This document shows positions 6,949 to 49,269 of a stretch of 64,000 nucleotides of DNA, piece by piece. Source of the DNA: a virus. The stretch's first letter is position 1. Each line of letters starts with the position of its first letter. Made by a program: the position numbers and the translations under genes. The stretch is from positions 1 to 64,000 of IMG/VR virus record IMGVR_UViG_3300042876_000282. One strand, given 5' to 3'. The notes beneath the pieces were generated by a model that saw only the letters and a program-made list of their open reading frames with translations, was not told where the DNA came from and ran no database searches.

Positions 6949-7308
6949 TTGTCGACCAAGCTCGTGAACACGTCCCGAACCGCGCTGACGTTCAACCTGA
7001 CGCGGGAGGTCTCACCGATTCGTCGGGTCTACGCGCGCACGCGTGTCGAGAAGACGGGCGAGGTGCACCTCGAAGATCGTCGACTCGTGATCCCCGATTC
7101 GGTGACGTTGCTTCACGGCGAGTCGCGCGGAGGATTCCACCCTTCGGTGGTGAGGTGTCCCGAGGTCGCGGCGCTGATCGCGGCGAGGAAGCTCCGCGCG
7201 GAGGACGAGATCACGTCGACGGATTCGCCGGCGACGCAGACGACGAACGAAGACGCGGCTTCGCGTCGCAAGGATGCGCCCGGTAAGGGCGATCGGAGGC
7301 AGGCATGA
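6949..7308 (+). CDS. Hypothetical protein
   Basis: GGAGG RBS before a TTG start. Confidence 0.55.
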   Translation: MSTKLVNTSRTALTFNLTREVSPIRRVYARTRVEKTGEVHLEDRRLVIPDSVTLLHGESRGGFHPSVVRCPEVAALIAARKLRAEDEITSTDSPATQTTNEDAASRRKDAPGKGDRRQA

Positions 7309-9539
7309 CGCAGGCAGCGGGCAGCGGCGCGAGTCGCGTGATCATCGAAGAGGAAGAGCCCCGGATCCGAGCGATTCCCGGCGTCCCGACCGCGATCTTC
7401 GGAGCGGTCGGTGTCGCGGAACGCGGACCGATCGGAGTCGCAACTGCGCTCACCTCGTTCGAGGACTTCGATCGGATCTTCGGGCGCGACACCGCGAACG
7501 CAGATCTGCCGCACATCGCGCGCGGGTTCTTCGAGGAGGGCGGGCAACTCATGTACGCGGTGCGAACCGTGCACTACACGAACCCCGCGAGCGCTGCGAC
7601 GAAGACGAGCGCGGCCGCAACGCTGGACGTGAACACCGGCGCGACTGCCCCGACCGCGGGAACCGTGCTCGGGGCGAACGTCGGCCCGTTCGACCTCGAA
7701 CCGGGCGACACGCTCGTCGTCGACATCGACGCCGGTGGTCCGGCGACCGCGACGTTCAGCGCGACCGCGGCGTCGCGCGATTCCGGGTCGGGTCCGTTCG
7801 CGCTCTCGAACGGGCAGACGTTGACGGTCTCCGTCAACGGCGGCGCGGTGCAGACGATCGCGTTCCTCACGTCGGAGTTCGTCGCCATCGGTGCGGCGAC
7901 TCGTGCGGAGGTCGCGGCGGTGATCAACGCGAAGATCGCGGGCGCGAGCGCGAGCGACACGGGCTCGGCCGTTCGGCTCACGAGCGACCGTCGCGGTACG
8001 GGCTCGGGGATCAACGTCACGGGCGGGACCGCGAACGGCGCGCTCGGCTTCACGACCGGGAACACGGCTGGCGGCGGCAACGTCTCGAACGTCGACGCGG
8101 TGACGGTGGCCGAGGTCAAGACCATCGTCGAGGCGGCGGTCGCGGGGTGCACGGTCTCGGACGTCGGCGGCGCGGTGCGCGTGACGTCGAACACGACCGG
8201 CGTTTCGTCGTCGGTTCTCGTGCAGGCGTCGAGCACGGCGGACGACGAACTCGGGCTGGACAACGCCACGCACACCGGCTCGACCGGCGCGGCGGTCGCG
8301 ACGCTTCGCTTCGATGGGCGCTATGATGGCGCCTACGCGAACCGGCTCACGTTCCGAGTGTCGGATGCGTCGAGCGGCGTCGCGTCGGAGTTCGATCTCC
8401 AAGTGCTCGACGACGGGCGCGTGGTGCAGACGTTCCCGAATCTCACCATGGACGAGACCGCGGATCGGTACGTCGAGACGGTGGTCAACGATTCGGTGAT
8501 CGGATCGCCGATCGTCATCGCGACCGACCTCGCGATCTCGGGTTCGGCGACCGATCGTCGGCCGGCGAACCAGACGACCGGCGTCATGGCGGGTGGCAAC
8601 GACGGGCTCTCGGGCATCGTCGACGCCGACTACATCGGATCGAGCGTGTCGAAGACCGGGCTCTACGCGCTCGACGCGGTCTCGGATCTCCGCATCCTCT
8701 CGACCTCGGGGCGTGCGACCGCCGCGGTGCACAATGCCGGGATCACCTACTGCGAGGTCTGGCGCAACGGCTCGGTCTTCTACGTGCTCGATTGCCCCTC
8801 GGGTCTCTCCGCGGTGCAGATCGTCGACTACGTCGAGACGACCGCGGGTCTTCTCGAATCGAGCGAGTTCGGTGCGATCTACTGGCCGCGCGTGAAGGTG
8901 CTGAACCCGAACCGCGGCGTCTTCGGGAACGACGAGCAGATCGTGGTTCCTCACTCGGGGATCGTCGCGGGCGTCTACGCGCGGACCGATGCGTCGCAGC
9001 AGGGCGGGGTCTATCAGCCTCCGGCCGGCGTCGAGCGCGGGATCCTTCGCTCGGTGCTCGGCTTCGAGACCGACGAGACGCTGGACGAGCGCAAGCGCGA
9101 CCTCGTCTACCCCAAGCGGATCAACCCGCTCACCACGGATCGCGGACTGCCGCGGTACATCGACGGGACGCGCACGCTCAAGAGCGGCGGGAACTTCCCG
9201 ACGGTGGCGGAGCGGCGCGGCGTGATCTTCATCGAGCAGTCGATCAAGGTCGGGCTGCAGTTCGCGCGTCACTCGAACAATACGCCGGCGCTCCGCCGGC
9301 GTGCGGAGCGCTCGGTCGAGAAGTTCCTCGGCGACCAGATGCGCGTCGGCGCGTTCCGTTCCGACGATCCGGCGACCGCGTTCTTCGTCGACTTCGGCGA
9401 CGGGCTGAACACGGACCCCGTGGTCTTCGCGGGGCAGATGATCGGCCGCATCGGTCTCGCCACGAACAAGCCGAACGACTGGGTGGTCCTTCGGTTCTCG
9501 CAGGACACGCGCGCGCTCGAAGCCGCGCTCAACGGATGA
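7305..9539 (+). CDS. Contractile tail sheath protein
   Basis: VGVAERGPIG, AIYWPRV, PHSGIVAGVYARTD, PPAG and RINPL motifs. Confidence 0.95.
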   Translation: MTQAAGSGASRVIIEEEEPRIRAIPGVPTAIFGAVGVAERGPIGVATALTSFEDFDRIFGRDTANADLPHIARGFFEEGGQLMYAVRTVHYTNPASAATKTSAAATLDVNTGATAPTAGTVLGANVGPFDLEPGDTLVVDIDAGGPATATFSATAASRDSGSGPFALSNGQTLTVSVNGGAVQTIAFLTSEFVAIGAATRAEVAAVINAKIAGASASDTGSAVRLTSDRRGTGSGINVTGGTANGALGFTTGNTAGGGNVSNVDAVTVAEVKTIVEAAVAGCTVSDVGGAVRVTSNTTGVSSSVLVQASSTADDELGLDNATHTGSTGAAVATLRFDGRYDGAYANRLTFRVSDASSGVASEFDLQVLDDGRVVQTFPNLTMDETADRYVETVVNDSVIGSPIVIATDLAISGSATDRRPANQTTGVMAGGNDGLSGIVDADYIGSSVSKTGLYALDAVSDLRILSTSGRATAAVHNAGITYCEVWRNGSVFYVLDCPSGLSAVQIVDYVETTAGLLESSEFGAIYWPRVKVLNPNRGVFGNDEQIVVPHSGIVAGVYARTDASQQGGVYQPPAGVERGILRSVLGFETDETLDERKRDLVYPKRINPLTTDRGLPRYIDGTRTLKSGGNFPTVAERRGVIFIEQSIKVGLQFARHSNNTPALRRRAERSVEKFLGDQMRVGAFRSDDPATAFFVDFGDGLNTDPVVFAGQMIGRIGLATNKPNDWVVLRFSQDTRALEAALNG

Positions 9540-9553
9540 TCGGAGCGTAAGAC

Positions 9554-10030
9554 ATGGCAACCGTAGGCAAGCCGCGCGCGTACCACAACAAGTTCCTCTT
9601 CCGCGTCGAGATCGACGGCGTCACGTACGCCGGCTTCTCGAAGTGCTCCGAACTCTCGAAGGAACTCGCCAAGATCGAGCACTACGAGGGCGGGAGCATG
9701 ATCCCCGACAAGTCGCCGGGACGTGCGACGATCTCGGACGTCACCCTCGAACGGGGAGCGACCGACGATCTCGAACTCTACGCGTGGTTCGAGGAGACCG
9801 CGAAGATCTCGGCCGGCGTCGGTGGTTCCGGTGCCGCGGATCCGGGCTACAAGCGCAACCTCGACATCGTGCAACTCGATCGCGACGGGACGGTCTTGCA
9901 GCGGTGGGCGTGCGTCGGCGCGTGGCCGCAGAAGTTCGTCGCGGGCGATTGGGATTCGTCCAGCGACGAGAAGCTGATCACCTCGGTCACGCTCGTGATC
10001 GACGACTTCGAGCCGAAGATCCGCAAGTGA
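9554..10030 (+). CDS. Tail tube protein (T4 gp19/Afp1-like)
   Basis: FRVEIDG...FSKCSEL...YEGG...PGR...VTLERG...AWP motifs. Confidence 0.92.
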
Positions 10031-10061: not shown

Positions 10062-10121
10062 CGGGGTGTCGTAGTAGTCGGGTGCTCTTGCTCGGCTACT
10101 ACGACACCCCGGATTCGTTTC
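10062..10121 (+). other. Long stem-loop downstream of the tube gene
   Basis: GGGGTGTCGTAGTAG/CTACTACGACACCCC perfect 15 bp, extendable to about 20 bp with G-U pairs. Confidence 0.8.
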
Positions 10122-11132: not shown

Positions 11133-13805
11133 GTGGCGCTCAACTCTCTCGGTCTCGGATTCGTCTTCACGGCTCGCGACATGGCGAGCGGGCAGATCGG
11201 CAACCTCGCGCGCAACTTCTCGGGGCTCGATCAAGCCGCGTTGCGGGCGAACGCGAGCTACCAGCGGAACCTCGGCGCGCTCGGCGCGAGTGCTGCGATT
11301 CTCGGAACCGGCGTCGTGACTCTCGCGGGTGCGTATGCAGCGGCGACGCGTGCGGGTACGTTCGAGCAAGAGGTTCAGCGCATCGGTGCGATCGCGCAGT
11401 CGTCGAGCGACCAAGTCGACATGCTCCGCGAAGCTGCGATCGGCGTCGGACTCTCTACGAAGTTCACGCCGGATCAGGCGGTGCAAGGTTTCCAAGCTCT
11501 CGCGTCGTCGGGCTTCAACGCGTCGCAATCGCTGGACATGCTGAACTCGACGCTCGGGTTCGCGGCGGCTGGCAACGTCTCGATCGAGCAATCCGCGCAG
11601 TCGATCGCGGCGGCGGTGAACGTCTTCGGGCTCGCCGGCGATGCGGCGGAAATGGTCGGAGATCAGTTCGTGCGGATCTCGAACGCGACGAACTTGACCG
11701 GCGCGGACATGCAGATCGCGATGTCGAACGTCGGTCGCGGCGCGCAGCTTACGGGGCAGAGCATCGAAGAAATGCTCCCCGCGCTCGGTCTCATGGTCGA
11801 CGCCGGCAAGGACGCCAGCGTCGCGGGCACCGCGGTCTCGTCGGCGTTGCAGTTCATGTCGAACAATGCAGAGGGGATCAAGTCGTCTCTCGGAGTCGAC
11901 GTCGTCGAGACGCTCGCCGATGGCACGCAGCGGTTCCGTCCGTTCATGGAGATCGCATACGAGGCCGGCGAAGCGCTCGCGGGGATCCAGAATCCCGCGG
12001 AGCGCGCAGCGCTCGCGACCGAACTCTTCGGGCGCTTCGGCGTCTCCGCGGTCACCGACGTCTACGGTCGTCTCTCGGGTCGCGGTGTCTCGGATGCGAA
12101 CAATAACGTGCTCCACGGCGCGGAAGCGATGAACTTCCTTCGCACGCAGATGACGGGTGCAGCGGGTGCAGCGGAGGAGTTCTCGAACCGCGTGCTCGAC
12201 ACGTTCGCGGGTCAACAGCAGCAGCTAGCGGCGTCGACCGAGACTCTCGGGATCGTGGTCGGTGAAGCGTTCGCGCCGGTCTTCCGACCGTTGGTCGAGG
12301 GCATCCTCGGAGCGGTGCGGATGATCGCGGAAGGCATCCGTTCGATGCCGGCGGAGTTCCGCACGATGATCGGTCGGTTCGTCGTCGGGATCGGCGTCGT
12401 GCTCACGATCGCGGGCGCGTTCATGGCGATGGGAGCGGCGATCGCGATCGTCGGTCCGTTCATGGCGTCGGCGGCGTCGGCGGCGGCTGGGCTCTTCGTC
12501 GCGTTGCTCCCCTACGCGTTGCTCTTCGTCGGCATCGCCGGCGCGGCGTACATGCTGAAACGTGCGATCGACGAGAACGTCGGCGGCATCGGCGACACGT
12601 TCCGGCAGCTATGGTCGAACGTGTCGCTCGTGTTCCGCGCGATGGGGCAGATCATCGGGCAGGGCTATCTCTCGGGCGAAGTCGCGGAAGAGTTCGGCGC
12701 GGCCGGTGCCGGCGTGCAAGGGTTCATCGAAACCTTCCACGCGCTCTACGTGCGCGCGCAAGAGTTCGGCGCTGGGATCTCCGCCGGGATCGACGCCGCG
12801 GTCGCTGCGATGGGTCCGACGCTCGACGCCGCGGGTGCAGCATTCGATCGTCTCGCGGAGGCGATGGGCTTCGCCGGCGATGCGGTCGACACCGCGGCGA
12901 CGACACCGCTCGAACGATTCGCGACGGTGGGCGCGGCGGTGGGCGCGGTGATCGGCGACGTGCTGACATGGGTTCTCGACTTCGGTCGCGTGCTCATGGA
13001 CATCGGCAGCGGTGCGATCGCGGGCTTCTCGGAAGGCTGGGAAGCGAGCGGCGTGTCGCTCGACGCGGTCGGCGACGCTCTCTCTTCGGTGTGGGACAAG
13101 ATCGTGCTGCTGGGAGAGTCGCTCGGGATCGTGAATAACGGAACGAGTGAGAGCGCGAGCGGGTGGTCGACGTTCGGAGAGATCGTCGGGAACGTGCTCG
13201 GCTTCGTCGGCGGCGGGATCGTCGACTTGGCGGAGACCGCGATCGTGATCTTCGGAGTGATCGTCGACGTCGTGCGCTTCGTGATCAATATCTTCGTGAC
13301 GTTGTGGGAGACCGTGAAGTTCGTGGGGCAGCTAATCGCCGCTATTTTCTTCGGGATTCGTGACGCGTTCATGCTCGTCGTCGACGGCTTGATCGCTGGG
13401 CTCGGCCGCATGGCGATGGCGCTCCCCGAGTCGATCCGGCCCGAGTGGATGAACGGCTTGATTCGCGAAGGCGGTGCCGCGACCGCGCGAATCGAGACGC
13501 GTGCGAACGAAGCCGACAACCGACTCGGCGAACTCGGCTCGTCGCTCTCGCGAAGTGGTGAAGAGACGTACGGTCCGACGCAAGAGCAGGAACGGAACCG
13601 CGCGCGTGAGGCGGAGCTTCAAGCCGAAGCGACCGCGCGCGCGTTGCAGGGGACCGGAGCGCGTCGCGATGCCGCACGGCAACAGACGACGGTGATCCAA
13701 GTCGACGGTCGCGAGATCGCGCGCGCGGTCTCGGAGAGCGGTGCGATCATGTCCGAAGAGTCGTTCACGCCAGCGGCGAACATGTCGATGGCTCCGGGGG
13801 TGTGA
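11133..13805 (+). CDS. Tape measure protein (TP901-type core)
   Basis: 890 aa, Ala/Gly-rich helical; TKFTPDQAVQGFQALASSG; synteny. Confidence 0.93.
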   Translation: MALNSLGLGFVFTARDMASGQIGNLARNFSGLDQAALRANASYQRNLGALGASAAILGTGVVTLAGAYAAATRAGTFEQEVQRIGAIAQSSSDQVDMLREAAIGVGLSTKFTPDQAVQGFQALASSGFNASQSLDMLNSTLGFAAAGNVSIEQSAQSIAAAVNVFGLAGDAAEMVGDQFVRISNATNLTGADMQIAMSNVGRGAQLTGQSIEEMLPALGLMVDAGKDASVAGTAVSSALQFMSNNAEGIKSSLGVDVVETLADGTQRFRPFMEIAYEAGEALAGIQNPAERAALATELFGRFGVSAVTDVYGRLSGRGVSDANNNVLHGAEAMNFLRTQMTGAAGAAEEFSNRVLDTFAGQQQQLAASTETLGIVVGEAFAPVFRPLVEGILGAVRMIAEGIRSMPAEFRTMIGRFVVGIGVVLTIAGAFMAMGAAIAIVGPFMASAASAAAGLFVALLPYALLFVGIAGAAYMLKRAIDENVGGIGDTFRQLWSNVSLVFRAMGQIIGQGYLSGEVAEEFGAAGAGVQGFIETFHALYVRAQEFGAGISAGIDAAVAAMGPTLDAAGAAFDRLAEAMGFAGDAVDTAATTPLERFATVGAAVGAVIGDVLTWVLDFGRVLMDIGSGAIAGFSEGWEASGVSLDAVGDALSSVWDKIVLLGESLGIVNNGTSESASGWSTFGEIVGNVLGFVGGGIVDLAETAIVIFGVIVDVVRFVINIFVTLWETVKFVGQLIAAIFFGIRDAFMLVVDGLIAGLGRMAMALPESIRPEWMNGLIREGGAATARIETRANEADNRLGELGSSLSRSGEETYGPTQEQERNRAREAELQAEATARALQGTGARRDAARQQTTVIQVDGREIARAVSESGAIMSEESFTPAANMSMAPGV

Positions 13806-14763: not shown

Positions 14764-16118
14764 CGACCGCCGATCGTTCGTCTCCGATCTTCTACGTCGC
14801 GGTCGTACCGGATGGCGACGGCGGTGAAGTCGTACGCGTCGATAACTTCGCGGACCGCGTGCTCTCGTTCAAGTATGAAGACGAAGAGCAGAAGGCCGAT
14901 CGCGTCACGCTCACGCTCGACAACTTCGATCTCGCGCTCTACGACGATCCCGCGTTCAAGCACGGTATGCTTCTCGACGTGTCGTGGGGGTATCCCGGTC
15001 GCATGGCGCCGACGCGCCGATGCGTGGTGCAGTCGATCAAGGGTGGTAAGTCGGTCACGGTGACGGCGGTCGCGCAATCGATCTTGATGAACAAGACGAT
15101 CCGCGCGCGCACGTTCTCGAACTCGCGGTACTCCGACGTCGCGCGCACGCTCGCACGAGAAGCCGGGTTCGGTGACGACGCGATCGACGTCGAAGAGACG
15201 CCGGTCGTGCACGAGACGATCACGCAGGCTCGGCTCTCCGATGCCCAACTACTGCGACGGCTCGCGGACAAGGAAGGGTTCGAATACTACGTCGACCACG
15301 AGGGATTCCATTTCCACCGTCGACGAGTCGACCAAGCTCCGACGCGGACGTTCGTCTACTACATCGATCGCGAAGGCGGCGACGTTCTCGACTTCTCTCT
15401 CGACGACGACATAACGAAGCCGAAGGCGCGGCACCGTCGACGCGGGCGCGACCTCACGGAGCGAACCGAGATCGACGAAGAGGCATCGAACGAGACCGAC
15501 ACGAACCGCGCGACGCTCGCGCCGATCGCGGCGCTCCCGTCTCCGCGGACGCCGGCGGCTTCGCCGACCGCGTCTTCGCCGGAGGTCTTCGTGACGTTCG
15601 ATCGAGACACGTCCGCGCCGTCTCTCTCGGGTCGAGCGAGTGCCGACGAACGTGTGGCGTCGGAAGAGACCGCGCCGACCTCCGCGCAGGATGCGACGAC
15701 GGCGAATCGCGAAGCCGTGGGGCAGAACCGACGCACGCGGCAGGCGGCGATCAAGCTCAAGCTCGACGTCGTCGGAGATCCGTACGTGCTCGCGAAGACC
15801 GTGATCGCGGTCGAGGGGCTCGGCTCGCGTCTCTCGGGGCGCTACTACGTCAAGCGCGTAGTCTCGACGCTCGGGAACGATGGAACATACAAGGTCGCGC
15901 TCGAAGTGATCTCCGACGGTCACGGTGGGCACGCTCGACGTTCGCGCGTTGCGAGCGACCTCGAACTTCCCGCGCGCGAGGAAGCGAACACGGGCGCGCA
16001 GAACACCGCGCCGCCGGCCGATCCCGACGCGCTCGAACCCGTGGTCGTGTTCGACCGCGACACGTCCGCGCCGGTGACGACGTTTCGCCCGCGCACGCAA
16101 CGCAGGGGGGGAACGTGA
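14760..16118 (+). CDS. Baseplate hub (late control D/GPD family)
   Basis: LTLDN, TQARLSDAQLLRRLA..EGF, GRYYVKRV motifs; ATGA overlap. Confidence 0.85.
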   Translation: MTTADRSSPIFYVAVVPDGDGGEVVRVDNFADRVLSFKYEDEEQKADRVTLTLDNFDLALYDDPAFKHGMLLDVSWGYPGRMAPTRRCVVQSIKGGKSVTVTAVAQSILMNKTIRARTFSNSRYSDVARTLAREAGFGDDAIDVEETPVVHETITQARLSDAQLLRRLADKEGFEYYVDHEGFHFHRRRVDQAPTRTFVYYIDREGGDVLDFSLDDDITKPKARHRRRGRDLTERTEIDEEASNETDTNRATLAPIAALPSPRTPAASPTASSPEVFVTFDRDTSAPSLSGRASADERVASEETAPTSAQDATTANREAVGQNRRTRQAAIKLKLDVVGDPYVLAKTVIAVEGLGSRLSGRYYVKRVVSTLGNDGTYKVALEVISDGHGGHARRSRVASDLELPAREEANTGAQNTAPPADPDALEPVVVFDRDTSAPVTTFRPRTQRRGGT

Positions 16119-26817: not shown

Positions 26818-27513
26818 ATGAAGGCGAGCGGGTTGATCGTAGGTGGGCGAGTCGTCGACGTCGTCGCGGACGATGGCGGCAAGATCGAGTGCTTCAACTG
26901 GCACGATCACGGGATGCAGTTCAAGCCCGGCGACGGTGCGCGTCGTCGCGTGATCTCGAAGACGCCGCTCCGCAAGAAGGTCTGGCATTGGACCGGCGGC
27001 GAGGGGACGGCGCGCGCGCTCTTCCGCGTGCTCGACGGTCGCGAACTCGGGATCGAGACCGCGATCGATGCCGACGGCTTGCTCTGGCAGTTCGCCGATC
27101 CGATCGAGGTCGACACCTACGACGCCGGCCCGTGGAATCCGGAGTCGTGGGGGACCGAGATCACGAACTACGGCTTCACGGGACCGGGGCGCTCGTCTCC
27201 GAACCCGAAGCGCGGGATGTACCGCACGACGATGAACGGGCGGTCGCGCGAGTTCGCGCGGTTCTTCCCCGCGCAGATCCGGACCGCGCTCGCGCTGGCG
27301 CGCGCGGTGTCGAAGGCGGTGCCGACGATCGCGCTCGCGGTGCCGGTGGGCACGGATGGGAAGCTCTACCCCAACGTCGCGCCGCGTGACTTCCTGCGAC
27401 GCTTCTCGGGGCACCTCGGGCACTACCACCTCACGGACAACAAAGCCGATCCGGGGCACGATCTTCTCGGCGCGTTCCGTGCCGCGGGCTTCGAGGGCGC
27501 GAAGGTGGGTTGA
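26818..27513 (+). CDS. Endolysin, N-acetylmuramoyl-L-alanine amidase (Amidase_2-like)
   Basis: WHWTGG, DADGLLWQ, NPESWGTEI, GHYH...KADPG motifs. Confidence 0.8.
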   Translation: MKASGLIVGGRVVDVVADDGGKIECFNWHDHGMQFKPGDGARRRVISKTPLRKKVWHWTGGEGTARALFRVLDGRELGIETAIDADGLLWQFADPIEVDTYDAGPWNPESWGTEITNYGFTGPGRSSPNPKRGMYRTTMNGRSREFARFFPAQIRTALALARAVSKAVPTIALAVPVGTDGKLYPNVAPRDFLRRFSGHLGHYHLTDNKADPGHDLLGAFRAAGFEGAKVG

Positions 27514-27934: not shown

Positions 27935-28416
27935 AGCGGCTCGGCTTCCTTCGGTACGCGATCACGGCACCGAGCGATCTCGTCGCGGTGCTGATCGTGC
28001 TCTTCGTCCGCGCGGCATGGGGCTCGAAGCTCTCTCGCGAAGGCGGGTGTCTCGTCGTCGACCTCGATCCGAAGTCGTGGCCGATGCGGTCGTGGTACCG
28101 CGGATGGGGTGGCACCACGTTCGGGCACGCGATCATGCTCGCGCCGCTCGACCCCGTTCGACGCGCGGAGGTCTTCCACCACGAACTCGTGCACGTCGAG
28201 CAAATCGAGGCGCACGCGCTCATGGCGCTCGTCTACGCGATCCCGATCGCGGTGACGTGGCATCCGCTGGCGGGGCTCGCGGCGTGGGCGACCTCGTCGT
28301 GGATCTCGTATTGGTCCGCGGGGCTCGTCGCGGTGCTACGCGGCGAGAGCTTCTATCACGGGAACACGAACGAGGAAGCGGCGTACGCGCAGACGCCGGG
28401 CGAGGGGGCACGATGA
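27931..28416 (+). CDS. Membrane HExxH zinc-peptidase-like protein
   Basis: GTTFGHAI...FHHELVHVEQ...NEEAAY. Confidence 0.65.
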   Translation: MKRLGFLRYAITAPSDLVAVLIVLFVRAAWGSKLSREGGCLVVDLDPKSWPMRSWYRGWGGTTFGHAIMLAPLDPVRRAEVFHHELVHVEQIEAHALMALVYAIPIAVTWHPLAGLAAWATSSWISYWSAGLVAVLRGESFYHGNTNEEAAYAQTPGEGAR

Positions 28417-28589
28417 CGAAGAGCGAGAAGGTTCGAGCGGCGGCGGTTCTCGGAGTGCCGCTCGTGCTGGCAGCGCTGGGCGTGGTCTACGCGCCCGACC
28501 TCGACGCGAAGATGCTCACGACCTACGGCTTCGTGCTCGGACTCTTCGAGGGCGCGGTCGTCATGTCGTACGCGACGCGGCGGTCGTGA
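28413..28589 (+). CDS. Small two-TM protein
   Basis: GAGGGGG RBS; ATGA/GTGA overlaps; two hydrophobic helices. Confidence 0.55.
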   Translation: MTKSEKVRAAAVLGVPLVLAALGVVYAPDLDAKMLTTYGFVLGLFEGAVVMSYATRRS

Positions 28590-28948
28590 ACGCGAAGACG
28601 TTCGGGATCGGTGCCGCGGTGCTCGCGCTCGCGATGCTCGTCGGGTTCGCCGGCGGTCGTTCGTGTTCGCCGACGACGCCGCATGTTCCGGACAAGCCGC
28701 TCCCGCCGGCGAGCATCGATGCCGGTGTCGCGGAGGCGCGGATCGATGACGAGCTACGGCGACGGCTCGACGAGATCGAGGGGCGCGTCGGTGAGATCGA
28801 AGCGGAGCAAGCGCGAAGGCGCGCCGGCTTCGCGAACTCGCAACGCGCGGAGCTTGCGCGGGTGCGCGATGGTGGACGGGGGGCGGTGTCGGAATGGCTG
28901 AACGACTTCGATCGATCGCTGCAATCGGGTTCTTCGTCGTCGCCTTGA
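28586..28948 (+). CDS. Putative spanin-like protein (N-terminal TM plus coiled coil)
   Basis: Topology and position in the lysis cassette. Confidence 0.5.
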   Translation: MNAKTFGIGAAVLALAMLVGFAGGRSCSPTTPHVPDKPLPPASIDAGVAEARIDDELRRRLDEIEGRVGEIEAEQARRRAGFANSQRAELARVRDGGRGAVSEWLNDFDRSLQSGSSSSP

Positions 28949-29361
28949 CGGCGGCGTTCGGCGTGCGAGCGCAGGAACCTCGGATCGTGTCTCTCGAACC
29001 GCGCGAGCCCGCGCCGTTCGCGGGGATGCTACTTCCCGACGACGTCGCGATCCGATGGCGGCAAGAGATCGAGCGATTGCGCTTCGAGCTTGATCTCGCG
29101 GCGCAACGCGCGGCGGCGTTGCAGGCGATCCACGCCGACGAGATCTCGGCGCGTGACGCCGCGGCCGCGGAGCGGCTCCGACTCCGCGATGAACTCTGGA
29201 CCGCGCGAGCGGAAGAACTCCGCGCGGCGGCGGCGGACGCTCGACGAGAGCGCGACGCGGCGCGCCGGCGCGCGGGGCCGCGGTGGTGGCAGCGTCCGGG
29301 GCTATGGTTCGCGCTCGGTGCGGGTAGCGCTGGCGCGTTGGCGGTGGTTCTCTCACGGTAG
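28894..29361 (+). CDS. Putative spanin partner (signal peptide, coiled coil, C-terminal TM)
   Basis: Overlaps the previous gene by 55 nt; APFAGMLL motif. Confidence 0.5.
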   Translation: MAERLRSIAAIGFFVVALTAAFGVRAQEPRIVSLEPREPAPFAGMLLPDDVAIRWRQEIERLRFELDLAAQRAAALQAIHADEISARDAAAAERLRLRDELWTARAEELRAAAADARRERDAARRRAGPRWWQRPGLWFALGAGSAGALAVVLSR

Positions 29362-29376
29362 GAAAGCAGGCGGGGC

Positions 29377-29592
29377 ATGGATTCGGTCAAGTTCGAGAAC
29401 TCGTCGCACCTCACGGAAGCGACATACGACGCGGAGCGCTCGAAGCTCCGCGTGACGTTCCGCGGTGGTTCGTCGTACGTCTACGACGGCGTGCCGGCGG
29501 CGGTGTGGGAGGGGTTGATCGCGTCGCCGTCGGCGGGGAAGTTCCTCGCGGCTGAGATCAAGCCGGCGTACGCGTGCGAGCGCGTGTCGTGA
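29377..29592 (+). CDS. KTSC-domain protein
   Basis: SSHL...YD....LRVTFRGG..YVYDGVP...LIASPSAGKF...IK. Confidence 0.9.
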   Translation: MDSVKFENSSHLTEATYDAERSKLRVTFRGGSSYVYDGVPAAVWEGLIASPSAGKFLAAEIKPAYACERVS

Positions 29593-30092
29593 CGACCTCC
29601 GGAGACGTCGAGAAGGCGAGTTCCGGCGATGGGGGCGGGGATGGTAGCGGCGACGACGTCACGCGCCGTCTCGCGGCGGAGGCTGGCGAGGCCGAGGTCG
29701 ATGCCGAAGTCGTGGTCGCGGTGGTCGAGGGCGTCGCGCGGAGGATCTCGGACGTGATCGCGAACCGTGGCGAGACCTCGATCCGCGCGGCGGTGCTCGA
29801 AGCGCTCGAAGGCGAAGCCGGAGCGCTCGCGGTGCTGGCGTCGGCGTACGACGAAGGGCGAGAAGATGCGACGCGTGACGCGTTGATCGGGTCGCGCGTG
29901 CTCGACGCCGCCGACATCGATCCCGGATGGGGTGACGTCGACGGAGTCGGACTTCGGAAGACGATCCAACGCGAGACGAACGCGTGCGAGCGGTGTTCGC
30001 ACGCGACGGTGTGCGTGGTCGCTCGCACGATCCCGCCGGAGTTTCTGATCGTGGTCTCGCGGTGTCTCGCGTTTGCCCCGCGGGCGGAGTAG
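29589..30092 (+). CDS. Hypothetical protein with C-terminal Cys cluster
   Basis: CERCSHATVC...C; GTGA overlap. Confidence 0.55.
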   Translation: MTTSGDVEKASSGDGGGDGSGDDVTRRLAAEAGEAEVDAEVVVAVVEGVARRISDVIANRGETSIRAAVLEALEGEAGALAVLASAYDEGREDATRDALIGSRVLDAADIDPGWGDVDGVGLRKTIQRETNACERCSHATVCVVARTIPPEFLIVVSRCLAFAPRAE

Positions 30093-30101
30093 AATCGACT
30101 C

Positions 30102-30177
30102 CGACGCCGGCTCGAACGCGTCGCGGTCTCACCTCCCCCCTGCTACCGCGACGACCGAGCCGGCGTCACTTTTTCTT
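30102..30177 (+). ncRNA. Candidate sRNA with C-rich anti-Shine-Dalgarno loop
   Basis: TAGAAT -10 at 30090; 12-bp and 9-bp perfect stems; loop CTCACCTCCCCCCTGCT; U-tract after the stem. Confidence 0.6.
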
Positions 30178-30211
30178 GGTCGTCGTCGGCGACGTGGTAG
30201 TACGACCGCCT

Positions 30212-30931
30212 ATGGTTCGATTCGCTCTCGCTCGTGTGCTGACTTCGACGGCTCTTCTCGTGACGCTCTCGATCGGCGCAACCTACGACCGACCCGCGGC
30301 GACGGTGTCTCCGCCGGAGACACGCGCGGCGCCGAAGACGGCTGAACGTGTCGAGCCGGTGCTGGTGGTGCCGGAGATCGCGACGCCGAAGACGCGACCG
30401 ATCCCGGATTGTGCATGGACGCCGGCGGCGAAGGCGTCGCTCGTCGCGATGGTGCGGATCGAGTCGTCGTCGGGGAAGGATGCGGCGGCGATCGCGTGGA
30501 CGATGACGCGACGCTGGCTCGGGCTGGCGCGGTTCCGCGGGCGATCGTTCGCGGACTACATCGTCGACACCTCCGCGCCGCTCCGCGCGCATCGTCGCGG
30601 CGAGTTCGAGTCGCTCACGGGTTATCAGGCGTGTGTGCTGGGAGTGCCACGGCTCGACGAGCGCGGTCGCGACGCGTGTCGGATCTTCGAGGGCGAGCGG
30701 AAAGCCGCGGAGGTGGGCGCGGTGCTCGACGCGTGGGCGGCGGGTGACGTTCCCGATCCGTGCGGGGGCGAGTCGTTCATGTGGTTCGCGCCGTGGTACC
30801 GCTCGACGCAGCGCACGCGAGTCGTCTCGTGCGGTGACACCGCGAACCGCTTCCACACGTTGCCCGAGATCTCGCACGCGACGGTGCTCGAACGCGTGTC
30901 GACGCCGGTCGATCTGCGAACGTGTCGGTAG
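30212..30931 (+). CDS. Cell-wall hydrolase (SleB/Hydrolase_2-like), secreted
   Basis: Signal anchor; LVAMVRIE..AAIAWTMTRR...PDPCGG..WF resembles the family pattern. Confidence 0.55.
   Translation: MVRFALARVLTSTALLVTLSIGATYDRPAATVSPPETRAAPKTAERVEPVLVVPEIATPKTRPIPDCAWTPAAKASLVAMVRIESSSGKDAAAIAWTMTRRWLGLARFRGRSFADYIVDTSAPLRAHRRGEFESLTGYQACVLGVPRLDERGRDACRIFEGERKAAEVGAVLDAWAAGDVPDPCGGESFMWFAPWYRSTQRTRVVSCGDTANRFHTLPEISHATVLERVSTPVDLRTCR
30305..30323. repeat. 19-bp palindrome, copy 3 (perfect 9-1-9)
   Basis: GTGTCTCCGCCGGAGACAC, in CDS. Confidence 0.85.
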
Positions 30932-30976
30932 GTCGTTCCGTTCGGGTGCGGACGGCGGATGATAGGGGGGCCGGCG

Positions 30977-32416
30977 ATGATCACCGTTCGTCTCGACACC
31001 CGAATCCGACTCCCCGCGGGGCTCCCGAAGAGCTTCGTGCGAGACCTCCGCGCAGCGTTCACGCACGCGAACCCGGAGTTCTCGAAGAAACGCGCGATCG
31101 GCTTCGCATCGTACGGCGTGCCATCGCGGATCGTGACGTGCACCGTGAACGCGGACGGCTCGATCACGCTTCCGCGTGGTGGTACGGCGACGCTTCGCAA
31201 GCTCGCGCGCGAGCACGGGATCCAGATCCGATGGATCGACGATCGAGAAGAGCAGCCGGCGGTCGCGTGGCCGAAGCCGAGCGTCGAGCTTCGACCGTAC
31301 CAAGCCGCGGCGCTCGACGCGTGCCTCTTGCGAGAGCAGGGGATCGTCCGCGCTCCGACGGGATCGGGTAAGACTACGATCGCGCTCGCGGTCGCGGCGG
31401 CGTTGCAGCAGCCGGCGCTCGTGATCATGCGGGACTCGAACTTGCTCGATCAGTGGAAGGACCGCGCCGTGCGCGAGCTTGGGCTGCACGCGCGCGAGAT
31501 CGGGATCTTGCGCGGAGGGTCGAAGCTACAGATCGGGCCGCGTCTCACGCTCGCGCTTCAGCAGACCTTGAACTCGGGCGCGTTCCCGCTGGGCAAGGTC
31601 GCGCGCGAGTTCGGTGCGGTGCTCGTCGACGAAGTGCACGGCGTCGCGGCGAAGACGTTTCAGACGGTGATCGACGAGTTCCCGGCGCGGTATCGTCTCG
31701 GGTTCAGCGCGGACGAAACGCGGAAAGACGGGAAAGAGTTTTTGGTCTACGACCAGTTCGGTTCGGTGCTCTACGAAGTCGAGCGCGACGAACTCGAACG
31801 CGACGGCGTGATCGTGCCGGTGCGCGTGCGTCTCGTGCCGACGACGTTCTCCGCGGATTGGTACCGCGACGCGTCGAGCGGAGAGCGCGACTTCAATCGG
31901 TTCCTCGAAGAGTCGACGAACGACGAAGAGCGCAACGCGCAACTCGTCGGGCTCGTGCGCCGACTCGTCTCCGACGGTACGCGACCGATCTTCGTCTTCA
32001 CGCATCGCGTGGAACACGCGCGATGGATCGCGGACGTCGGTCTCTTCGCGGTGGGCGTGCGTGCCGGGCTCATGCTGGGCGGTAAGCCGAACGCGGTCCG
32101 CTTCGCGGAAGATAAGTCGCGACTCGCACGCGGCGACCTCGACGCGGCCGCGGGAACGTACAACGCGATCGGAACCGGAATCGACGTGCCGGCGGTCGCG
32201 GCTGGCGTCATGGCGACGCCGATCGGGAACAACGCGCAGTTCTTCAATCAGGTTCGCGGGCGAATCTGCCGACCCGCGCCGGGCAAGCGCGAGGGCGTGC
32301 TGTTCGTGTTGTGGGATCGAAACGTCTTCCCGGATGCTCCGGCGAAGTTCAAGAAGTGGAACCGCGGCAACGTCGAGATCCTCGACGACGCGGGACGATG
32401 GATCGCGGTCCGTTGA
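30977..32416 (+). CDS. Superfamily 2 helicase (UvsW/XPB-like)
   Basis: LRPYQ, APTGSGKT, DEVH, QVRGRICR. Confidence 0.92.
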   Translation: MITVRLDTRIRLPAGLPKSFVRDLRAAFTHANPEFSKKRAIGFASYGVPSRIVTCTVNADGSITLPRGGTATLRKLAREHGIQIRWIDDREEQPAVAWPKPSVELRPYQAAALDACLLREQGIVRAPTGSGKTTIALAVAAALQQPALVIMRDSNLLDQWKDRAVRELGLHAREIGILRGGSKLQIGPRLTLALQQTLNSGAFPLGKVAREFGAVLVDEVHGVAAKTFQTVIDEFPARYRLGFSADETRKDGKEFLVYDQFGSVLYEVERDELERDGVIVPVRVRLVPTTFSADWYRDASSGERDFNRFLEESTNDEERNAQLVGLVRRLVSDGTRPIFVFTHRVEHARWIADVGLFAVGVRAGLMLGGKPNAVRFAEDKSRLARGDLDAAAGTYNAIGTGIDVPAVAAGVMATPIGNNAQFFNQVRGRICRPAPGKREGVLFVLWDRNVFPDAPAKFKKWNRGNVEILDDAGRWIAVR

Positions 32417-32435
32417 TCGTTCGGAGGTAGCAGGG

Positions 32436-32735
32436 ATGGAACGTCGAAGGAAAGTCACGCGCGAAGGCGCGGAGGTCGAGGTCGGTTCGGAGTTCGTCGC
32501 GCGCGACGGCGACACGCTCACGGTCTCGTATCCCGAGGTCAAGCTCCCGCTCCGCGCGAAGTTCGCGATCGTCGACGTCGGCGGCGTCTCGTACACGCGT
32601 GCGCTCCGCGACGGCGACGACGTCGGAGCGGAGTACGATCGGATCTACTCGTTCCTCCGGCAGCGTGCCGAACGCGACGCGGTCGAGAAGGTGCGGATGT
32701 GGAACGCGGAGTTCGGCGACGGTGGTTCGAAATGA
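32436..32735 (+). CDS. Hypothetical protein
   Basis: GGAGG RBS; operon packing. Confidence 0.6.
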   Translation: MERRRKVTREGAEVEVGSEFVARDGDTLTVSYPEVKLPLRAKFAIVDVGGVSYTRALRDGDDVGAEYDRIYSFLRQRAERDAVEKVRMWNAEFGDGGSK

Positions 32736-33292
32736 AAGTTCGGACCAAGAAACCCGCGGGCTGGACGCCGACACCGCGCGCGGTGCCTTCCACGATGCCG
32801 ACGCCGGCGCGCGTACCATCGCCGAAGGTCGCGGACGCTCCGCGTGCATACCTCGCGGGCTTCCTCGCGGAACGTGCGAAGCCGAGCGGGGTGCGCGAAC
32901 GAAAGAAGACGAGCGCGGAGGTCGCCGAAGCCGACGCGAAGCGTCGCGCGCAGACCGGCGAGTGGGAAGACGCGAAGCCGTCGACGCTCGTCGGTCTCTA
33001 TTCGGTGTGTCATCGGATGGTCTACGGCGTTGCGCCGATCGAGTTCGAGGACAACGCAGAATTCGCGAGTGCGACGCGCGCGGCGTCGGCGTTGCTCACG
33101 TCGCAGTTCGGCGGTGACGCGGTGGAGTTCGCGGCGTTCGTGCGCTGGGCATGGACGCGCGAGAAGAACCGCGCGAAGTGGGCGCGCGACAATGGGCGGG
33201 ACATCAATCGGATGGTGTGGCGCTTCGTGTTCGCGCGCGCGAAGGTGGGGGACTACCGCGTCGACCTCGCGAATCGGGGGAGGCGTGCGTGA
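32732..33292 (+). CDS. Hypothetical protein (possible helicase loader/initiator)
   Basis: ATGA overlap; directly before DnaB. Confidence 0.55.
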   Translation: MKVRTKKPAGWTPTPRAVPSTMPTPARVPSPKVADAPRAYLAGFLAERAKPSGVRERKKTSAEVAEADAKRRAQTGEWEDAKPSTLVGLYSVCHRMVYGVAPIEFEDNAEFASATRAASALLTSQFGGDAVEFAAFVRWAWTREKNRAKWARDNGRDINRMVWRFVFARAKVGDYRVDLANRGRRA

Positions 33293-34731
33293 GCGAATCG
33301 AAGTCGAAGACGAAGGACGAGATCACCTACGACCCGACGAACGAGCGGATCGTGATCGGGATGGCTCTCGCAGATCGGAAGCGACGAGACACGTTGACGC
33401 GTACGATCGCAGCGGACGAGTTCCTCGTGCCGCAACATGCCGCGCTCTGGCGCGCTCTCCGCGTGATGACAGACAAGGGACTCGAACACGATCCCGCGGT
33501 GTTCCTTCGCATCGCGCTCGCGGAGTCTCCCGACCTCGACGCCGACTACACGAGCGGGCTTGAAGCACAAGCGACGATCCCGACCAACCCGGATTGGTAC
33601 GTCGAGACGCTTCGATGGGATGCGACGCGCGCTCGCGTGATCAAGGGGCCAGCACCGGAGCTTATCAAAGACCTCCGCGATCCGAAGGCGACGCCGGAGA
33701 AGGTCGCGAGTGCAGCGCGCGCGGTGCTTCGTGCGATCGAAGGCGGCGGCGGTCGGAGTTTCATTCGACGACCCGACGAACTCGCGCGCTCGTTCTCGGC
33801 GGAGATCGAAGCGCGCAAGGCTTCGGGCAACTTTTGGCCGACGGGCTTCGATGCGATGGACGCGAAGCTCGTCGAAGGCGCGATGCCGAAGCGAACCGCG
33901 GTCGTCGCGGGGCTTCCCGGATCTGGCAAGTCGACGTTCTCCGGAGACTTCGCGATCCGACTCGCGAAGGCCGGTCGTCGGCCGCTCGTCGGATGCTGGG
34001 AAATGGGCGCGGAGTCGACGCTCGACGTCATGGTTTCGGGCTTGCTCGGTCTCGAACTCGAACGCGTGGTCCAGGGCAACCTCACGAGCGACGAAGTCGC
34101 GCGCGTGAACAAGGCGACGCGCTGGATCACGCAGCGGGTCAAGTTCATGGAGAACGCTTTCTTCGGCGACGAGCTACGCCGCGGCGCGGGGAAGCGCTCG
34201 AACGATCGATCGCTCGACGTGCTCGAAGGCTACATCGCTGAGAGCGGATGCGACGTCGGGATTTGGGATCTCTGGGAGCGGTGTCTCGTCGATCTCTCGT
34301 ATGACGGGGTCACGACCGCGCTCTATCGCCAGCAGGAAATGCACGCGCGTTACAATATCTATGGCGTGATCTGCCACCAGCTGAGACTCAAAGACGTCGA
34401 GAAGCGCGCGGACAAGCGACCGACGCGCGAAGCGATCAAGGGCACCGGCGCGTTCGTCGAGGTCGCGGATCAGATCTTCGGCGTCCATCGCGACGCGCAA
34501 TTCAAGGCGGTACCGGACGACTCGCTCGAAATCATTTGCCTGAAACAGCGCAAGGGAAAGGCGAATTGGGCGGCGCGCTTCGAGTGGGATGGTGCTCGCG
34601 CGCAGATCACGGGAGGCGAGGAAGTGCCCTACGATCCGGGGTTGGAGTCGAGCACGCAGTTCGGAGGGGACATCGGCGACGTGAAGATCGAACGCTCGTC
34701 GCGAAAGAAGCCGAGTCGGAGGGACGGATGA
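33289..34731 (+). CDS. dnaB: Replicative DnaB-like helicase
   Basis: TGFDAMD, GLPGSGKS, EM, HQL, KRPT...IKGTG..EVAD, KQRKG. Confidence 0.92.
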   Translation: MSESKSKTKDEITYDPTNERIVIGMALADRKRRDTLTRTIAADEFLVPQHAALWRALRVMTDKGLEHDPAVFLRIALAESPDLDADYTSGLEAQATIPTNPDWYVETLRWDATRARVIKGPAPELIKDLRDPKATPEKVASAARAVLRAIEGGGGRSFIRRPDELARSFSAEIEARKASGNFWPTGFDAMDAKLVEGAMPKRTAVVAGLPGSGKSTFSGDFAIRLAKAGRRPLVGCWEMGAESTLDVMVSGLLGLELERVVQGNLTSDEVARVNKATRWITQRVKFMENAFFGDELRRGAGKRSNDRSLDVLEGYIAESGCDVGIWDLWERCLVDLSYDGVTTALYRQQEMHARYNIYGVICHQLRLKDVEKRADKRPTREAIKGTGAFVEVADQIFGVHRDAQFKAVPDDSLEIICLKQRKGKANWAARFEWDGARAQITGGEEVPYDPGLESSTQFGGDIGDVKIERSSRKKPSRRDG

Positions 34732-34931
34732 GCACGATGGCGGAAGAGCAGCCGACGCGAGCGATCGCGAACGCGGTCGAACGAATCCGTGCCGCGGTTC
34801 GCGCTGCGAAGCCGTTGCTCGAAGACCCGCGCGACGTCGCGGTCTTGGAGTTCCTCGAAGAGACGATCGACGAAGAGGGCGCGATCATCGATCGCGCGTT
34901 GACGGCATGTCGCGCGACGTCGCACGCGTAG
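34728..34931 (+). CDS. Hypothetical protein
   Basis: GGAGG RBS; ATGA overlap. Confidence 0.5.
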   Translation: MSTMAEEQPTRAIANAVERIRAAVRAAKPLLEDPRDVAVLEFLEETIDEEGAIIDRALTACRATSHA

Positions 34932-35866
34932 ACGTGTCGGAGCTACTCCGCGCGCTGGGCATCGAAGCGAAGCGCGACGGGAAGCGATGGGTCGCGAAGT
35001 GTCCGAACCCGGATCACGCGGACCGATCGCCGTCGTGGTCGATCGTCGACACCGGCTCGCACTACTGTTTCGCGTGCGGGTTGCAGGGTGGCCCGTGGGA
35101 ACTCGTCGCGTCGGTGCGGTCGTGTTCGCTCGCGGATGCTGGGAAGTGGATCGCGGCGAACGTCGGACGGCTCGACCTCGACGACGGGCTGCCGACGATT
35201 CGGATCGGAGAGCCGACGCGTGCGGAGTTCGCGCTTCCGTGGGGGGTGCAGATCCCGAGCGTGGACGGGAGCGAATGGTTTCGGCCGGCGCTCGACTACC
35301 TCGATCGACGCGGGGTCACGCGCGCGCAGATCGAACGATGGCGCATCGGGTTCGCGATCTCGGGGCGGTGCGCGATGCGCGTCGTCGTGCCGGTGGTGAC
35401 GCGTCGTCGCTTGCTCTCGTACGTCGCGCGCGCGTTCGTGAACGACGGTCGAGCGCGGTACGACACGCCGCCGCGAGACGAGCCCGGTGTGAATCCCGCG
35501 GCCGCGATCTTCGGCGAACCCGCGTTCGAGCCGCTCGACGCGGAGGGAAGGCGCGGGACGGTGACGGTGACGGAGGGTGTCTTCAAGTCGCTCGCGATGG
35601 AACGCGCAGGCGCGCCGAACCCGTGCGCGATCCTCGGTGCGAAGAACATGGGGCCGGAGAAGATCGCAACGCTCGCGACGTTCCGACGAGTGCTCGTCGC
35701 GACCGATCCGGACTCCGCCGGTGACCGAGCCTTCGACGCGCTCGCGGAATCTCTGGCGAGATACTCCGACGTCCGACGCGTACCGCTCGACCTCGCGCCG
35801 GATGATGCAGACGACGACACGAACCGCGCCGCATGGATTGCAGCGGCGAGACGGAGGGTAAGATGA
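34907..35866 (+). CDS. dnaG: DNA primase (CHC2 zinc finger plus TOPRIM)
   Basis: CP..DH.DRSPS..YCFAC; VTEG; DPDSAG. Confidence 0.9.
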   Translation: MSRDVARVDVSELLRALGIEAKRDGKRWVAKCPNPDHADRSPSWSIVDTGSHYCFACGLQGGPWELVASVRSCSLADAGKWIAANVGRLDLDDGLPTIRIGEPTRAEFALPWGVQIPSVDGSEWFRPALDYLDRRGVTRAQIERWRIGFAISGRCAMRVVVPVVTRRRLLSYVARAFVNDGRARYDTPPRDEPGVNPAAAIFGEPAFEPLDAEGRRGTVTVTEGVFKSLAMERAGAPNPCAILGAKNMGPEKIATLATFRRVLVATDPDSAGDRAFDALAESLARYSDVRRVPLDLAPDDADDDTNRAAWIAAARRRVR

Positions 35867-36255
35867 CGGCTCCGACTGGAAGACCGAAGGGAAGACCGAA
35901 GGGCGCGAAGACCGCGGCTCACGCGTACGCGTTCCGCAAGCTCGCGAAGCTCGCGCCGAACTCCGCGCGCGAGCGACTACGTCGCGCGATCATCGTCACG
36001 GGTGGGAGCTACATCGCGACCGCGGTGGTGATCGGCTACTCGCCGGCGTCGACGAAAGAGATCCAGCGCTGGATCGCGAAGTGGAACCTCGAAGACGAGG
36101 TCCGCGAAGCGAAGCGACGGGGCGCGACTCGGAACCGCGCCGGCAAGCTCACGAACAAGTCGAGCGCGATCCGCAAGACCAACGCGTCGATCGTGCGCGA
36201 CGCGAAGCGCAAGCTCGAAAAGCTCGCGAAAATCCGGGAGCTTTTGCAGACGTGA
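35863..36255 (+). CDS. Basic HTH-like DNA-binding protein
   Basis: GRPKG motif; GGSYIATAVVIG Fis-like HTH. Confidence 0.55.
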   Translation: MTAPTGRPKGRPKGAKTAAHAYAFRKLAKLAPNSARERLRRAIIVTGGSYIATAVVIGYSPASTKEIQRWIAKWNLEDEVREAKRRGATRNRAGKLTNKSSAIRKTNASIVRDAKRKLEKLAKIRELLQT

Positions 36256-48862: not shown

Positions 48863-48888
48863 GCGAACAAAGCAGGGAAGGTGTAGAC

Positions 48889-49269
48889 ATGGCAAAGAAG
48901 ATGGACCCCAACGTCAAGATCACGAACGCGATTTCGGATGCGCTCTTCGCGGTGGTGCGTGCGAGCAACTCCGATCCCGCCGGGCTCGTGATCTCGAAGG
49001 GCGGTCGCTCCGCTCTTCAACGGATCAAGTCGCTCGCGGACGCGATCACCGTTCCGACCGACGCCGACGTCGAGCGGATCGCGCACGAGCGCAAGCTCGC
49101 GCTCGCCGCGTTCGCGCTCAAGGCGAAGGCGAAGGCCGACCGCGAGAAGGCGAAGGCCAAGCGCGCGAAGAACACCGCGGCCGCTGCGAAGCGCTCCGGC
49201 AAGCGCGGCAAGGCGAAGGCCGCGAAGCGCTCGAAGGCGAAGACCTCCGACGCGAACGCGACTCACTGA
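48889..49269 (+). CDS. Basic Lys/Ala-tailed (histone-like) protein
   Basis: KAKAKA-rich C-terminus; RBS present. Confidence 0.65.
   Translation: MAKKMDPNVKITNAISDALFAVVRASNSDPAGLVISKGGRSALQRIKSLADAITVPTDADVERIAHERKLALAAFALKAKAKADREKAKAKRAKNTAAAAKRSGKRGKAKAAKRSKAKTSDANATH

Follow-up and report, generated by a model that had tools for sequence, protein, structure and literature searches.

A large hairpin with a C-rich apical loop lies in the first 64 kb of a linear viral genome of 87,237 bp (IMG/VR virus record IMGVR_UViG_3300042876_000282, estimated to be 81% complete); these 64,000 nucleotides are referred to here as the window. The hairpin occupies a 119-nt gap between a tail/lysis block on its 5′ side and a replication block on its 3′ side, the flanking genes being co-directional. 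The likeliest reading, which we hold with about even confidence, is a terminator-type hairpin whose C-run loop may pair with G-run ribosome-binding sites. Judging from its anatomy, the hairpin would most likely stop transcription after the tail/lysis genes and leave a stable structure of ∼70–75 nt at the RNA 3′ end, either as the tail of the long upstream message or as a short transcript from a −10-like box. The likeliest extra role of the exposed C-run loop would be pairing with the G-run or Shine-Dalgarno (SD) ribosome-binding sites widely used by the phage, damping translation broadly, in cis or in trans, and not that of the replication genes specifically. What the sequences show is the hairpin's structure, position and rarity and its partial conservation; termination, accumulation of the RNA and any pairing are inferred. 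Regulatory RNAs in phages of uncultured soil bacteria are almost unknown, and if the loop does pair with these sites, a structure that would pass as 'just a terminator' doubles as a translational regulator. Were it only a terminator, the finding would be ordinary, and the hairpin would still mark the late/replication boundary in a new group of ∼90–115-kb myoviruses.

Fold, rarity and terminator-like anatomy

The element consists of two perfect stems around a 17-nt loop (Table 1). Its predicted fold of −43.8 kcal/mol compares with −25.6 ± 3.2 for shuffled sequences (z −5.65; 0 of 200 shuffles as good), and it ranks as the 9th lowest-energy 70-nt window of the 87,237-bp genome (mean −25.1, s.d. 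5.6) and joint first among 173 hairpin-plus-T-rich sites on both strands. The apical nonamer CCUCCCCCC is unpaired with a probability of ∼1.0 in three sequence contexts, in agreement with the exposed loop that a sequence-only reading of this DNA had described; that reading had also given the right coordinates and letters for TAGAAT, both stems, the loop, TCACCTCC, the C6 run, the tail and the AGCAGGG sites. Loop-like 17-mers (at least 11 C and at most one G) account for 13 of ∼87,220 plus-strand windows, in 5 clusters, and TCACCTCC is found twice on the plus strand and once on the minus strand of the genome. Runs of at least five T number 16 on the plus strand of the 87 kb, 12 of these in promoter cassettes. 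The hairpin structure and its odd loop are real and atypical of this genome's DNA, although among some 250,000 surveyed windows a few such loops are to be expected by chance. Two DNA runs, possibly from the source sample, carry an identical hairpin and provide neither independent support nor variation.

Two coding interpretations were discarded. The frame of the downstream gene of 239 amino acids (aa) is open through the hairpin, but G+C by codon position is 0.80/0.63/0.59 there and the homologs share the start Met at 30212, from which the gene has a third-position G+C (GC3) of 0.83. A minus-strand open reading frame (ORF) at 29659–30132, with its GTG start inside GGAGGTGA, is antisense to a high-GC3 gene. 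No transfer RNA or transfer-messenger RNA was found.

The stem starts 10 nt past the TAG stop codon of up172, a 172-aa ORF on the same strand, and its 21 G+C-rich base pairs are followed by U5, so that the features of an intrinsic terminator are present except for loop size. As in intrinsic (Rho-independent) terminators, there is a G+C-rich hairpin 10 nt past a stop codon, a U5 run, co-directional genes and a module boundary; unlike them, the phage hairpin has an unusually large 17-nt loop and 65-nt bipartite stem, and a relative without the U-run has retained its loop and upstream boxes (see below).

An alignment of the helicase encoded downstream retrieved 16 IMG/VR loci (31–58% identity) in which the order helicase-orf99-DnaB is conserved. 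In four of them (L005, L010, L011 and L018) a hairpin with a T-run lies 16–122 nt before the helicase match, the apical loops being UACCCC, GAAA, AAAC and AACGC, respectively; in L018 the terminator is followed by a TTTACT-N17-TATAAT promoter and then by SD-ATG. Judged from these sequences, transcription stops placed just before the replication genes appear to be recurrent in the group, and the anti-SD loop does not. The same observation favours a plain intrinsic terminator that also stabilises the 3′ end of the tail/lysis transcript, in which case the 16S-like, C-rich loop and its match in a related phage would be incidental or the product of slow divergence of an inherited inverted repeat. 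We regard this as possible but doubtful. All terminator features are present, and the relatives' pre-helicase terminator-like hairpins do without anti-SD loops, yet a generic terminator needs neither a set loop nor set upstream sequence, and both are kept in the relative described in the next section.

L018, a distant relative, contains a second terminator-like hairpin with an anti-SD loop adjoining a matching ribosome site. Its 12-bp stem, at 1270–1303 in intergenic sequence, bears the loop UUCCUCCCUU and runs into the tail GUUUUC; AAGGGGAGGG and CAGGGAGG-N6-ATG come next, within 40 nt.

Partial conservation in a related phage

A covariance model was built from the hairpin of the phage under study (G000) and searched in the related loci. 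L004:4726–4801 matches it with 18.9 bits (E ∼0.01), a score that alone proves little, since a non-syntenic match in L007, probably a generic terminator, reaches 19.2 bits. L004 is a distant relative syntenic with G000 (helicase 58% identical, flanking proteins 35–58%), and its match lies in ∼100 non-coding bases, ∼240 nt after a homolog of up172 (L004 4067–4489), the sole one among the 16 loci. The L004 sequence folds into a 23-bp hairpin (−41.3) with apical loop UCCCCCUGCU.

Both hairpins have GACGCC.../...GGCGUCACU at the stem base and nine loop bases, CCCCCUGCU, in common. In the outer helix, the first six pairs are identical and four of the next six are changed on both sides and still paired. 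The sequence-only reading had named kept stems with a lost loop as the outcome that would speak against it; in this one relative CCCCCUGCU is kept while stem pairs have changed, but the CCUCC part of the loop is lost, CCGUCC standing in its place, and with it the proposed 16S-like anti-SD core. The U-run is also lacking in L004.

The similarity extends upstream, outside the covariance model. Each phage has CTCGCG, 18 nt with a small G+C hairpin, and TAnnAT-C-nn-CUC, 6–7 nt before the stem; the L004 counterpart of TAGAAT is TACCAT, 6 nt before the stem base. Counting both strands, G000 has a single CTCGCG-N17-19-TANNAT, and L004 likewise has one, in either case directly 5′ of the hairpin; by a rough, post hoc estimate this co-occurrence has a chance probability of 1.4 × 10−5. 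When 2.9 million viral contigs were searched for the joint three-word pattern, the one other match was the contig of L004. Because loop, stem base and upstream boxes are kept while the middle of the stem is compensated, the hairpin appears to be under selection beyond termination, and from these sequence comparisons it is probably more than a generic terminator. The U-run, which a terminator needs, is not common to L004, a further point against a plain terminator, as are the nine loop bases, the stem base and the two boxes that both phages retain with flanking proteins of only 35–58% identity.

Other candidate relatives were set aside. The exact 17-nt loop has two matches in viral contigs, L002 and L003, both coding and attributed to chance. 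The three-part pattern was found in 73 stretches of metagenome contigs, with none of which a model match coincides and none of which encodes a relative of 11 window proteins. L045, L080, L084, L022 and L055 fold strongly but in another context or orientation, and were treated as unrelated. Three of these loci from soil metagenomes (L045 2162–2233, L080 421–492 and L084 2508–2579) have a long hairpin in common, with one-strand loop CUCCUCCCCCUGCUGGU, between high-GC3 ORFs facing the other way. A model search of the whole records G001–G005 missed even the known L004 site and is hence uninformative.

The conserved boxes raise the question of where transcription begins. At least 13 sigma-70-like promoter cassettes are present in the genome, each with an A7/T7 tract, TTGACA, TTGCAC or TTGCAA, N16-17, TATATC or CATAGA, and a conserved leader in which a hairpin GGGCTCGCCC and a purine run GAGAAAGAGAAGA in place of GGAGG precede the ATG. 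No cassette-like site was found in 28000–30215, where TAGAAT scores −45 or lower on the cassette matrix, nor is there a cassette-type promoter between the hairpin and P36266 (genes 30212–36255). The promoter that the sequence-only reading had placed at TAGAAT has partial sequence support, in that the position of a −10-like box is kept in L004 (TACCAT); on the other hand, its TAG is a stop codon and there is no −35 like that of the 13 cassettes.

Several of these features would be accounted for if the hairpin formed the very 5′ end of a replication transcript starting at CTCGCG-N18-TAnnAT, as a leader, an attenuator or a protein-binding hairpin. In this scheme a factor on the loop or stem base, up172 for example, would decide whether polymerase stops at the U-run or passes into the genes for the 239-aa protein, helicase, DnaB and primase. 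In both phages the spacing of the boxes ahead of the stem is fixed and the helicase–DnaB block lies downstream of the element; no cassette-type promoter serves the genes up to P36266, and L004 is the only one of the 16 relatives with up172 and the only one with a syntenic hairpin match. Protein-recognised hairpins such as lambda boxB typically keep their loop and stem base while the middle of the stem varies. The up172 gene has G+C by codon position of 0.76/0.53/0.81, and its family has four invariant Cys within a highly conserved C-terminus (RE..C..C.....C.VAR...E.L.V..RC). Yet the boxes are unlike the phage's sigma-70-like promoters and, in G000, overlap the coding end of up172; TAnnAUCnnCUC, though conserved, may just as well serve as a single-stranded RNA linker, and up172 has no family match in Pfam, PHROG or NCBIfam. 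Whether as leader or attenuator of the replication transcript or as a hairpin bound by a protein, up172 being the candidate, this reading is a serious alternative to the terminator with a pairing loop, although on balance an unlikely one.

Conservation of loop and stem base at the head of the replication block is also what a DNA-level element might show, such as a recognition hairpin of a replication origin or nick site beside the replication genes, and the L004 hairpin stands ∼130 nt before GATCAGGATCAG-type repeats. Against it, no iterons or A+T-rich stretch adjoin the hairpin in G000, GC skew does not turn there, and the T-run is strand-specific, as for RNA; we consider such an element extremely improbable. 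At L004 4900–4970, ∼130 nt past the hairpin of that phage, GATCAGGATCAGATCAGGATCAGATCAGGATCTAGATCTGATCCTGATCAG repeats and a palindrome are followed by a G-rich stretch; the repeats may form an origin or operator array.

Possible pairing of the loop with ribosome-binding sites

The terminator with a pairing loop draws on the abundance of G-rich sites in front of the phage's genes: the hexamers AGGGGG, GGGGGG and CGGGGG rank with those most enriched at starts. Of the 34 late-block starts 23, and of the 19 replication-block starts 12, offer an SD duplex of −6 or better, against 16% of random positions. The best partners of the loop are late genes, with starts at 16115 (−24.3 kcal/mol), 28894 (−22.1) and 26818 (−20.7), while the start at 32436 reaches −13.4. 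Besides GGAGG, private ribosome-site words are enriched before starts (e.g. 4411, 10138, 17440 and genome position 82089), namely GGTAGGA (5), TCTGAGG/CTGAGGGGG (4), AAAGGAACC (4–5) and AGCAGGG (4).

These data bear on the model of the sequence-only reading, a late small RNA (sRNA) of 70–75 nt with its own promoter, whose anti-SD loop would silence SD-led replication or host mRNAs, 32436 first among them, while leaderless late mRNAs escape, with the KTSC protein as a partner. In its favour are the conserved position of the −10-like box, the exposed loop, the AGCAGGG words and a weak Rfam likeness to ar14 and CcsR1, whose loops bear CCUCCUCCC. The words at 48871, 49334 and 51366 stand 11, 7 and 5 nt before the starts at 48889, 49348 and 51378; in all, AGCAGGG precedes four starts in the replication/recombination block and ranks 14 of 2044 heptamers for enrichment at starts (three starts added by hand). 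The proposed target site itself, GGTAGCAGGG, is unique on the plus strand (32426–32435), lies directly before the ATG at 32436 of a 99-aa ORF and is the complement of 30138–30147. However, three of these ten bases (30145–30147) sit inside the 9-bp stem, and since 208 of 2000 shuffles of the 20-mer (and 274 of 2000 random genomic 20-mers) attain a 10-nt match to the 159 start-region windows, the complementarity to the 32436 start region is no better than chance and does not single it out. Late genes have SD sites about as frequently as replication genes and are the best loop partners, so the early-to-late switch is not supported, and the escape of leaderless late messages fails with it, several late starts pairing more strongly than 32436. 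The KTSC gene is confirmed, and nothing connects it to the hairpin. With CCUCC lost in L004 as well, we judge the model very unlikely.

Several results also weigh against our favoured reading. Loop duplexes with start regions average −11.6 kcal/mol and those with random windows −6.9, but the same mean is attained by 21% of 300 composition-matched shuffled loops, and the count at −16 by 4.7%. That specific target matches are at chance level and the loop no better than shuffled C-rich loops is as a plain terminator would have it. L004's genome has no sense-strand GCAGGGGG, and only one of its ten sense-strand AGCAGGG words precedes a start, that of a gene unrelated to the tagged genes in G000; across G000 and L004 no target complementarity was found that exceeds chance or is co-conserved with the loop. 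L004 is the sole relative with the element, the L007 match scoring as well, and since both U-run and CCUCC are lost there, neither termination nor 16S mimicry would be the core conserved function. As for termination itself, the loop of 17 nt (9 nt with two extra pairs) is longer than the ∼3–8 nt typical of terminators, which is not a strict range, and a terminator scan limited to loops of 3–8 nt did not call the hairpin. An efficient terminator here would leave the genes at 30212–36255 without a recognised promoter. A weak TTGGTC-N16-TGG-TAGTAC, read from the sequence at 30176–30203, might be the source of a leaderless message for the 239-aa gene, which lacks an SD.

Set beside described regulatory RNAs, the hairpin possibly works like the C-rich-loop riboregulators. 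No Rfam family reaches its gathering score in the window; the weak matches are microRNA-like hairpins, ar14 (16.5 bits, threshold 58.8) and CcsR1 (12.4 bits, threshold 65.3), and in the ar14 match the C/U-loop hairpin aligns to the ar14 hairpin bearing CUCCUCCUCCC. The cuckoo, CcsR1-4 and alpha-r14 sRNAs of Alphaproteobacteria (RF02344, RF02791) have 2–4 adjacent hairpins (PMC4615179), and the CcsR RNAs, from a DUF1127 locus, are processed from the 3′ untranslated region (3′-UTR) of the gene for a small protein, which in turn binds these RNAs (PMC4615179, PMC8034643). The phage hairpin resembles them in the anti-SD-like C/U motif of its loop, CCUCCCCCC against CCUCCUCCC (PMC4615179, PMC8034643), and, as with CcsR, follows and co-occurs with a small Cys-rich gene. 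It differs in being a single bipartite hairpin in a phage setting and not at a DUF1127 locus; moreover, CCUCCCCCC matches CCUCCUCCC at eight of nine positions, while L004 has UCCCCCUGCU, without the CCUCC part. The hairpin falls outside the cuckoo family, because it is one hairpin and not 2–4, its motif differs and its Rfam score is far below threshold.

A further parallel is offered by the icaR mRNA of Staphylococcus aureus, where gel shifts, compensatory mutations and RNase III cleavage demonstrated pairing of the 3′-UTR anti-SD motif UCCCCUG (PMC3868564). The phage sequence likewise has, at the presumed 3′ end of an mRNA, a C-run followed by UG (UCCCCCCUG), with which G-run SD regions of its own or other messages could pair; it differs from icaR in that such pairing is putative and the mRNA long and polycistronic. 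In mycobacterial 6C (PMC6486639) and S. aureus RNAIII (PMC4615179) exposed C-rich loops bind G-rich or SD target regions, and the phage hairpin has such a loop as well; 6C, by contrast, has two C-rich loops, and no Rfam 6C match to the phage hairpin was obtained at E up to 10.

A bolder proposal combines these elements into a phage minigene, with a non-canonical promoter (CTCGCG-N18-TAnnAT), hairpin and terminator, giving an RNA of ∼70 nt whose exposed loop copies the 16S rRNA 3′ end together with a C-run. This abundant RNA would work against ribosome-binding sites or as a decoy at the late/replication switch point, co-inherited with the Cys-rich up172 as an RNA–protein pair like CcaF1–CcsR, though one borne by a virus. 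We think this distinctly unlikely.

Gene order, relatives and other structures

The phage is an uncultured myovirus carried by two rhizosphere metagenome runs; its genome has 66.7% G+C and genes almost all on the plus strand. Table 1 lists the features discussed.

Table 1. Positions of the hairpin, its surroundings and other features in the window, except where genome coordinates are indicated.
Feature	Position	Strand	Remarks
TAGAAT	30090–30095	+	Stop TAG + AAT; −10-like hexamer 7 nt 5′ of stem base; sole TAGAAT in genome
Outer 12-bp perfect stem	30103–30114 / 30156–30167	+	Read from sequence, fold
Inner 9-bp perfect stem	30119–30127 / 30145–30153	+	Read from sequence, fold
17-nt C-rich loop CTCACCTCCCCCCTGCT (also written CUCACCUCCCCCCUGCU)	30128–30144	+	Fold, composition
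Anti-SD-like TCACCTCC	30129–30136	+	Inside loop
C6 run	30135–30140	+	Inside loop
Apical 9 nt CCUCCCCCC	30132–30140	+	Unpaired in minimum-free-energy fold, two extra pairs below
Loop 3′ part CCCCCUGCU	30136–30144	+	Common to L004
Tail ACTTTTTCTT (also written ACUUUUUCUU)	30168–30177	+	U5 begins 2 nt past stem
CTCGCG box	30066–30071	+	18 nt 5′ of TAGAAT, within last codons of up172
Start region GGAGGTAGCAGGG ATG	32423–32438	+	Holds 10-nt complement of 30138–30147, chance level
Tail sheath	7305–9539		Upstream of hairpin
Tail tube	9554–10030		Upstream of hairpin
Tape measure	11133–13805		Upstream of hairpin
Baseplate genes	Upstream of hairpin		
Amidase_2, weak match	26818–27513		Upstream of hairpin
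Small ORFs	Between Amidase_2 match and KTSC		Upstream of hairpin
KTSC gene	29377–29592		Confirmed, E 2 × 10−19
up172, 172 aa	29574–30092	+	Last gene 5′ of hairpin, stop TAG 30090–30092
239-aa gene	30212–30931	+	Signal-peptide-like N-terminus, conserved Cys, no family, no SD
SF2 helicase	30959–32416	+	Next after 239-aa gene
99-aa ORF	32436–32735	+	Between helicase and DnaB
DnaB	33151–34731		Then primase
Promoter cassettes	Window 36266, 52602, 61278, 63517; genome 64081, 65948, 66816, 67642, 80101, 84073	+	
Promoter cassettes	Genome 76679, 77612, 77950	−	

Protein relatives were found in Logan, ENA, JGI and NCBI records. The helicase has relatives of 89% identity (P0018 and P0019), the 239-aa protein of 66–83% (56% in NCBI record P0006), and the three closest relatives of up172 are 76–82% identical. 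Neither the 239-aa protein nor up172 has a match in Pfam, PHROG, NCBIfam or among PDB sequences, and the tail sheath and helicase match cultured phages at only 26–30% identity. No match was obtained by blastn of 28400–32400 against phage records, by scans of viral contigs with up172, the helicase or the 239-aa protein as single queries, by scanning alignment A1 against viral, metagenome and genome contigs, or by scanning alignment A5 against genome contigs. Alignment A4, comprising six up172 relatives, had the contig of L004 as its only match in viral contigs.

Strong structures are also present elsewhere in the genome. Within the conserved 3′ coding part of up172, a strong hairpin at 29965–30040 (−37.3 kcal/mol) is followed by GTTTCTGATCGT. 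At 10062–10111, past the tail tube gene and ahead of the gene that follows it, a 22-bp near-perfect hairpin (−42.2 kcal/mol) has the tail GATTCGTTTCGC; placed behind the highly expressed sheath and tube genes, it probably serves as an attenuator or stabilises RNA. Past the window, a cluster of the genome's most stable structures (−49.7 and −46.2 kcal/mol) lies at genome positions 80941–81250, with CCTTATAC repeats and alternating CGCGTGCGCG tracts.

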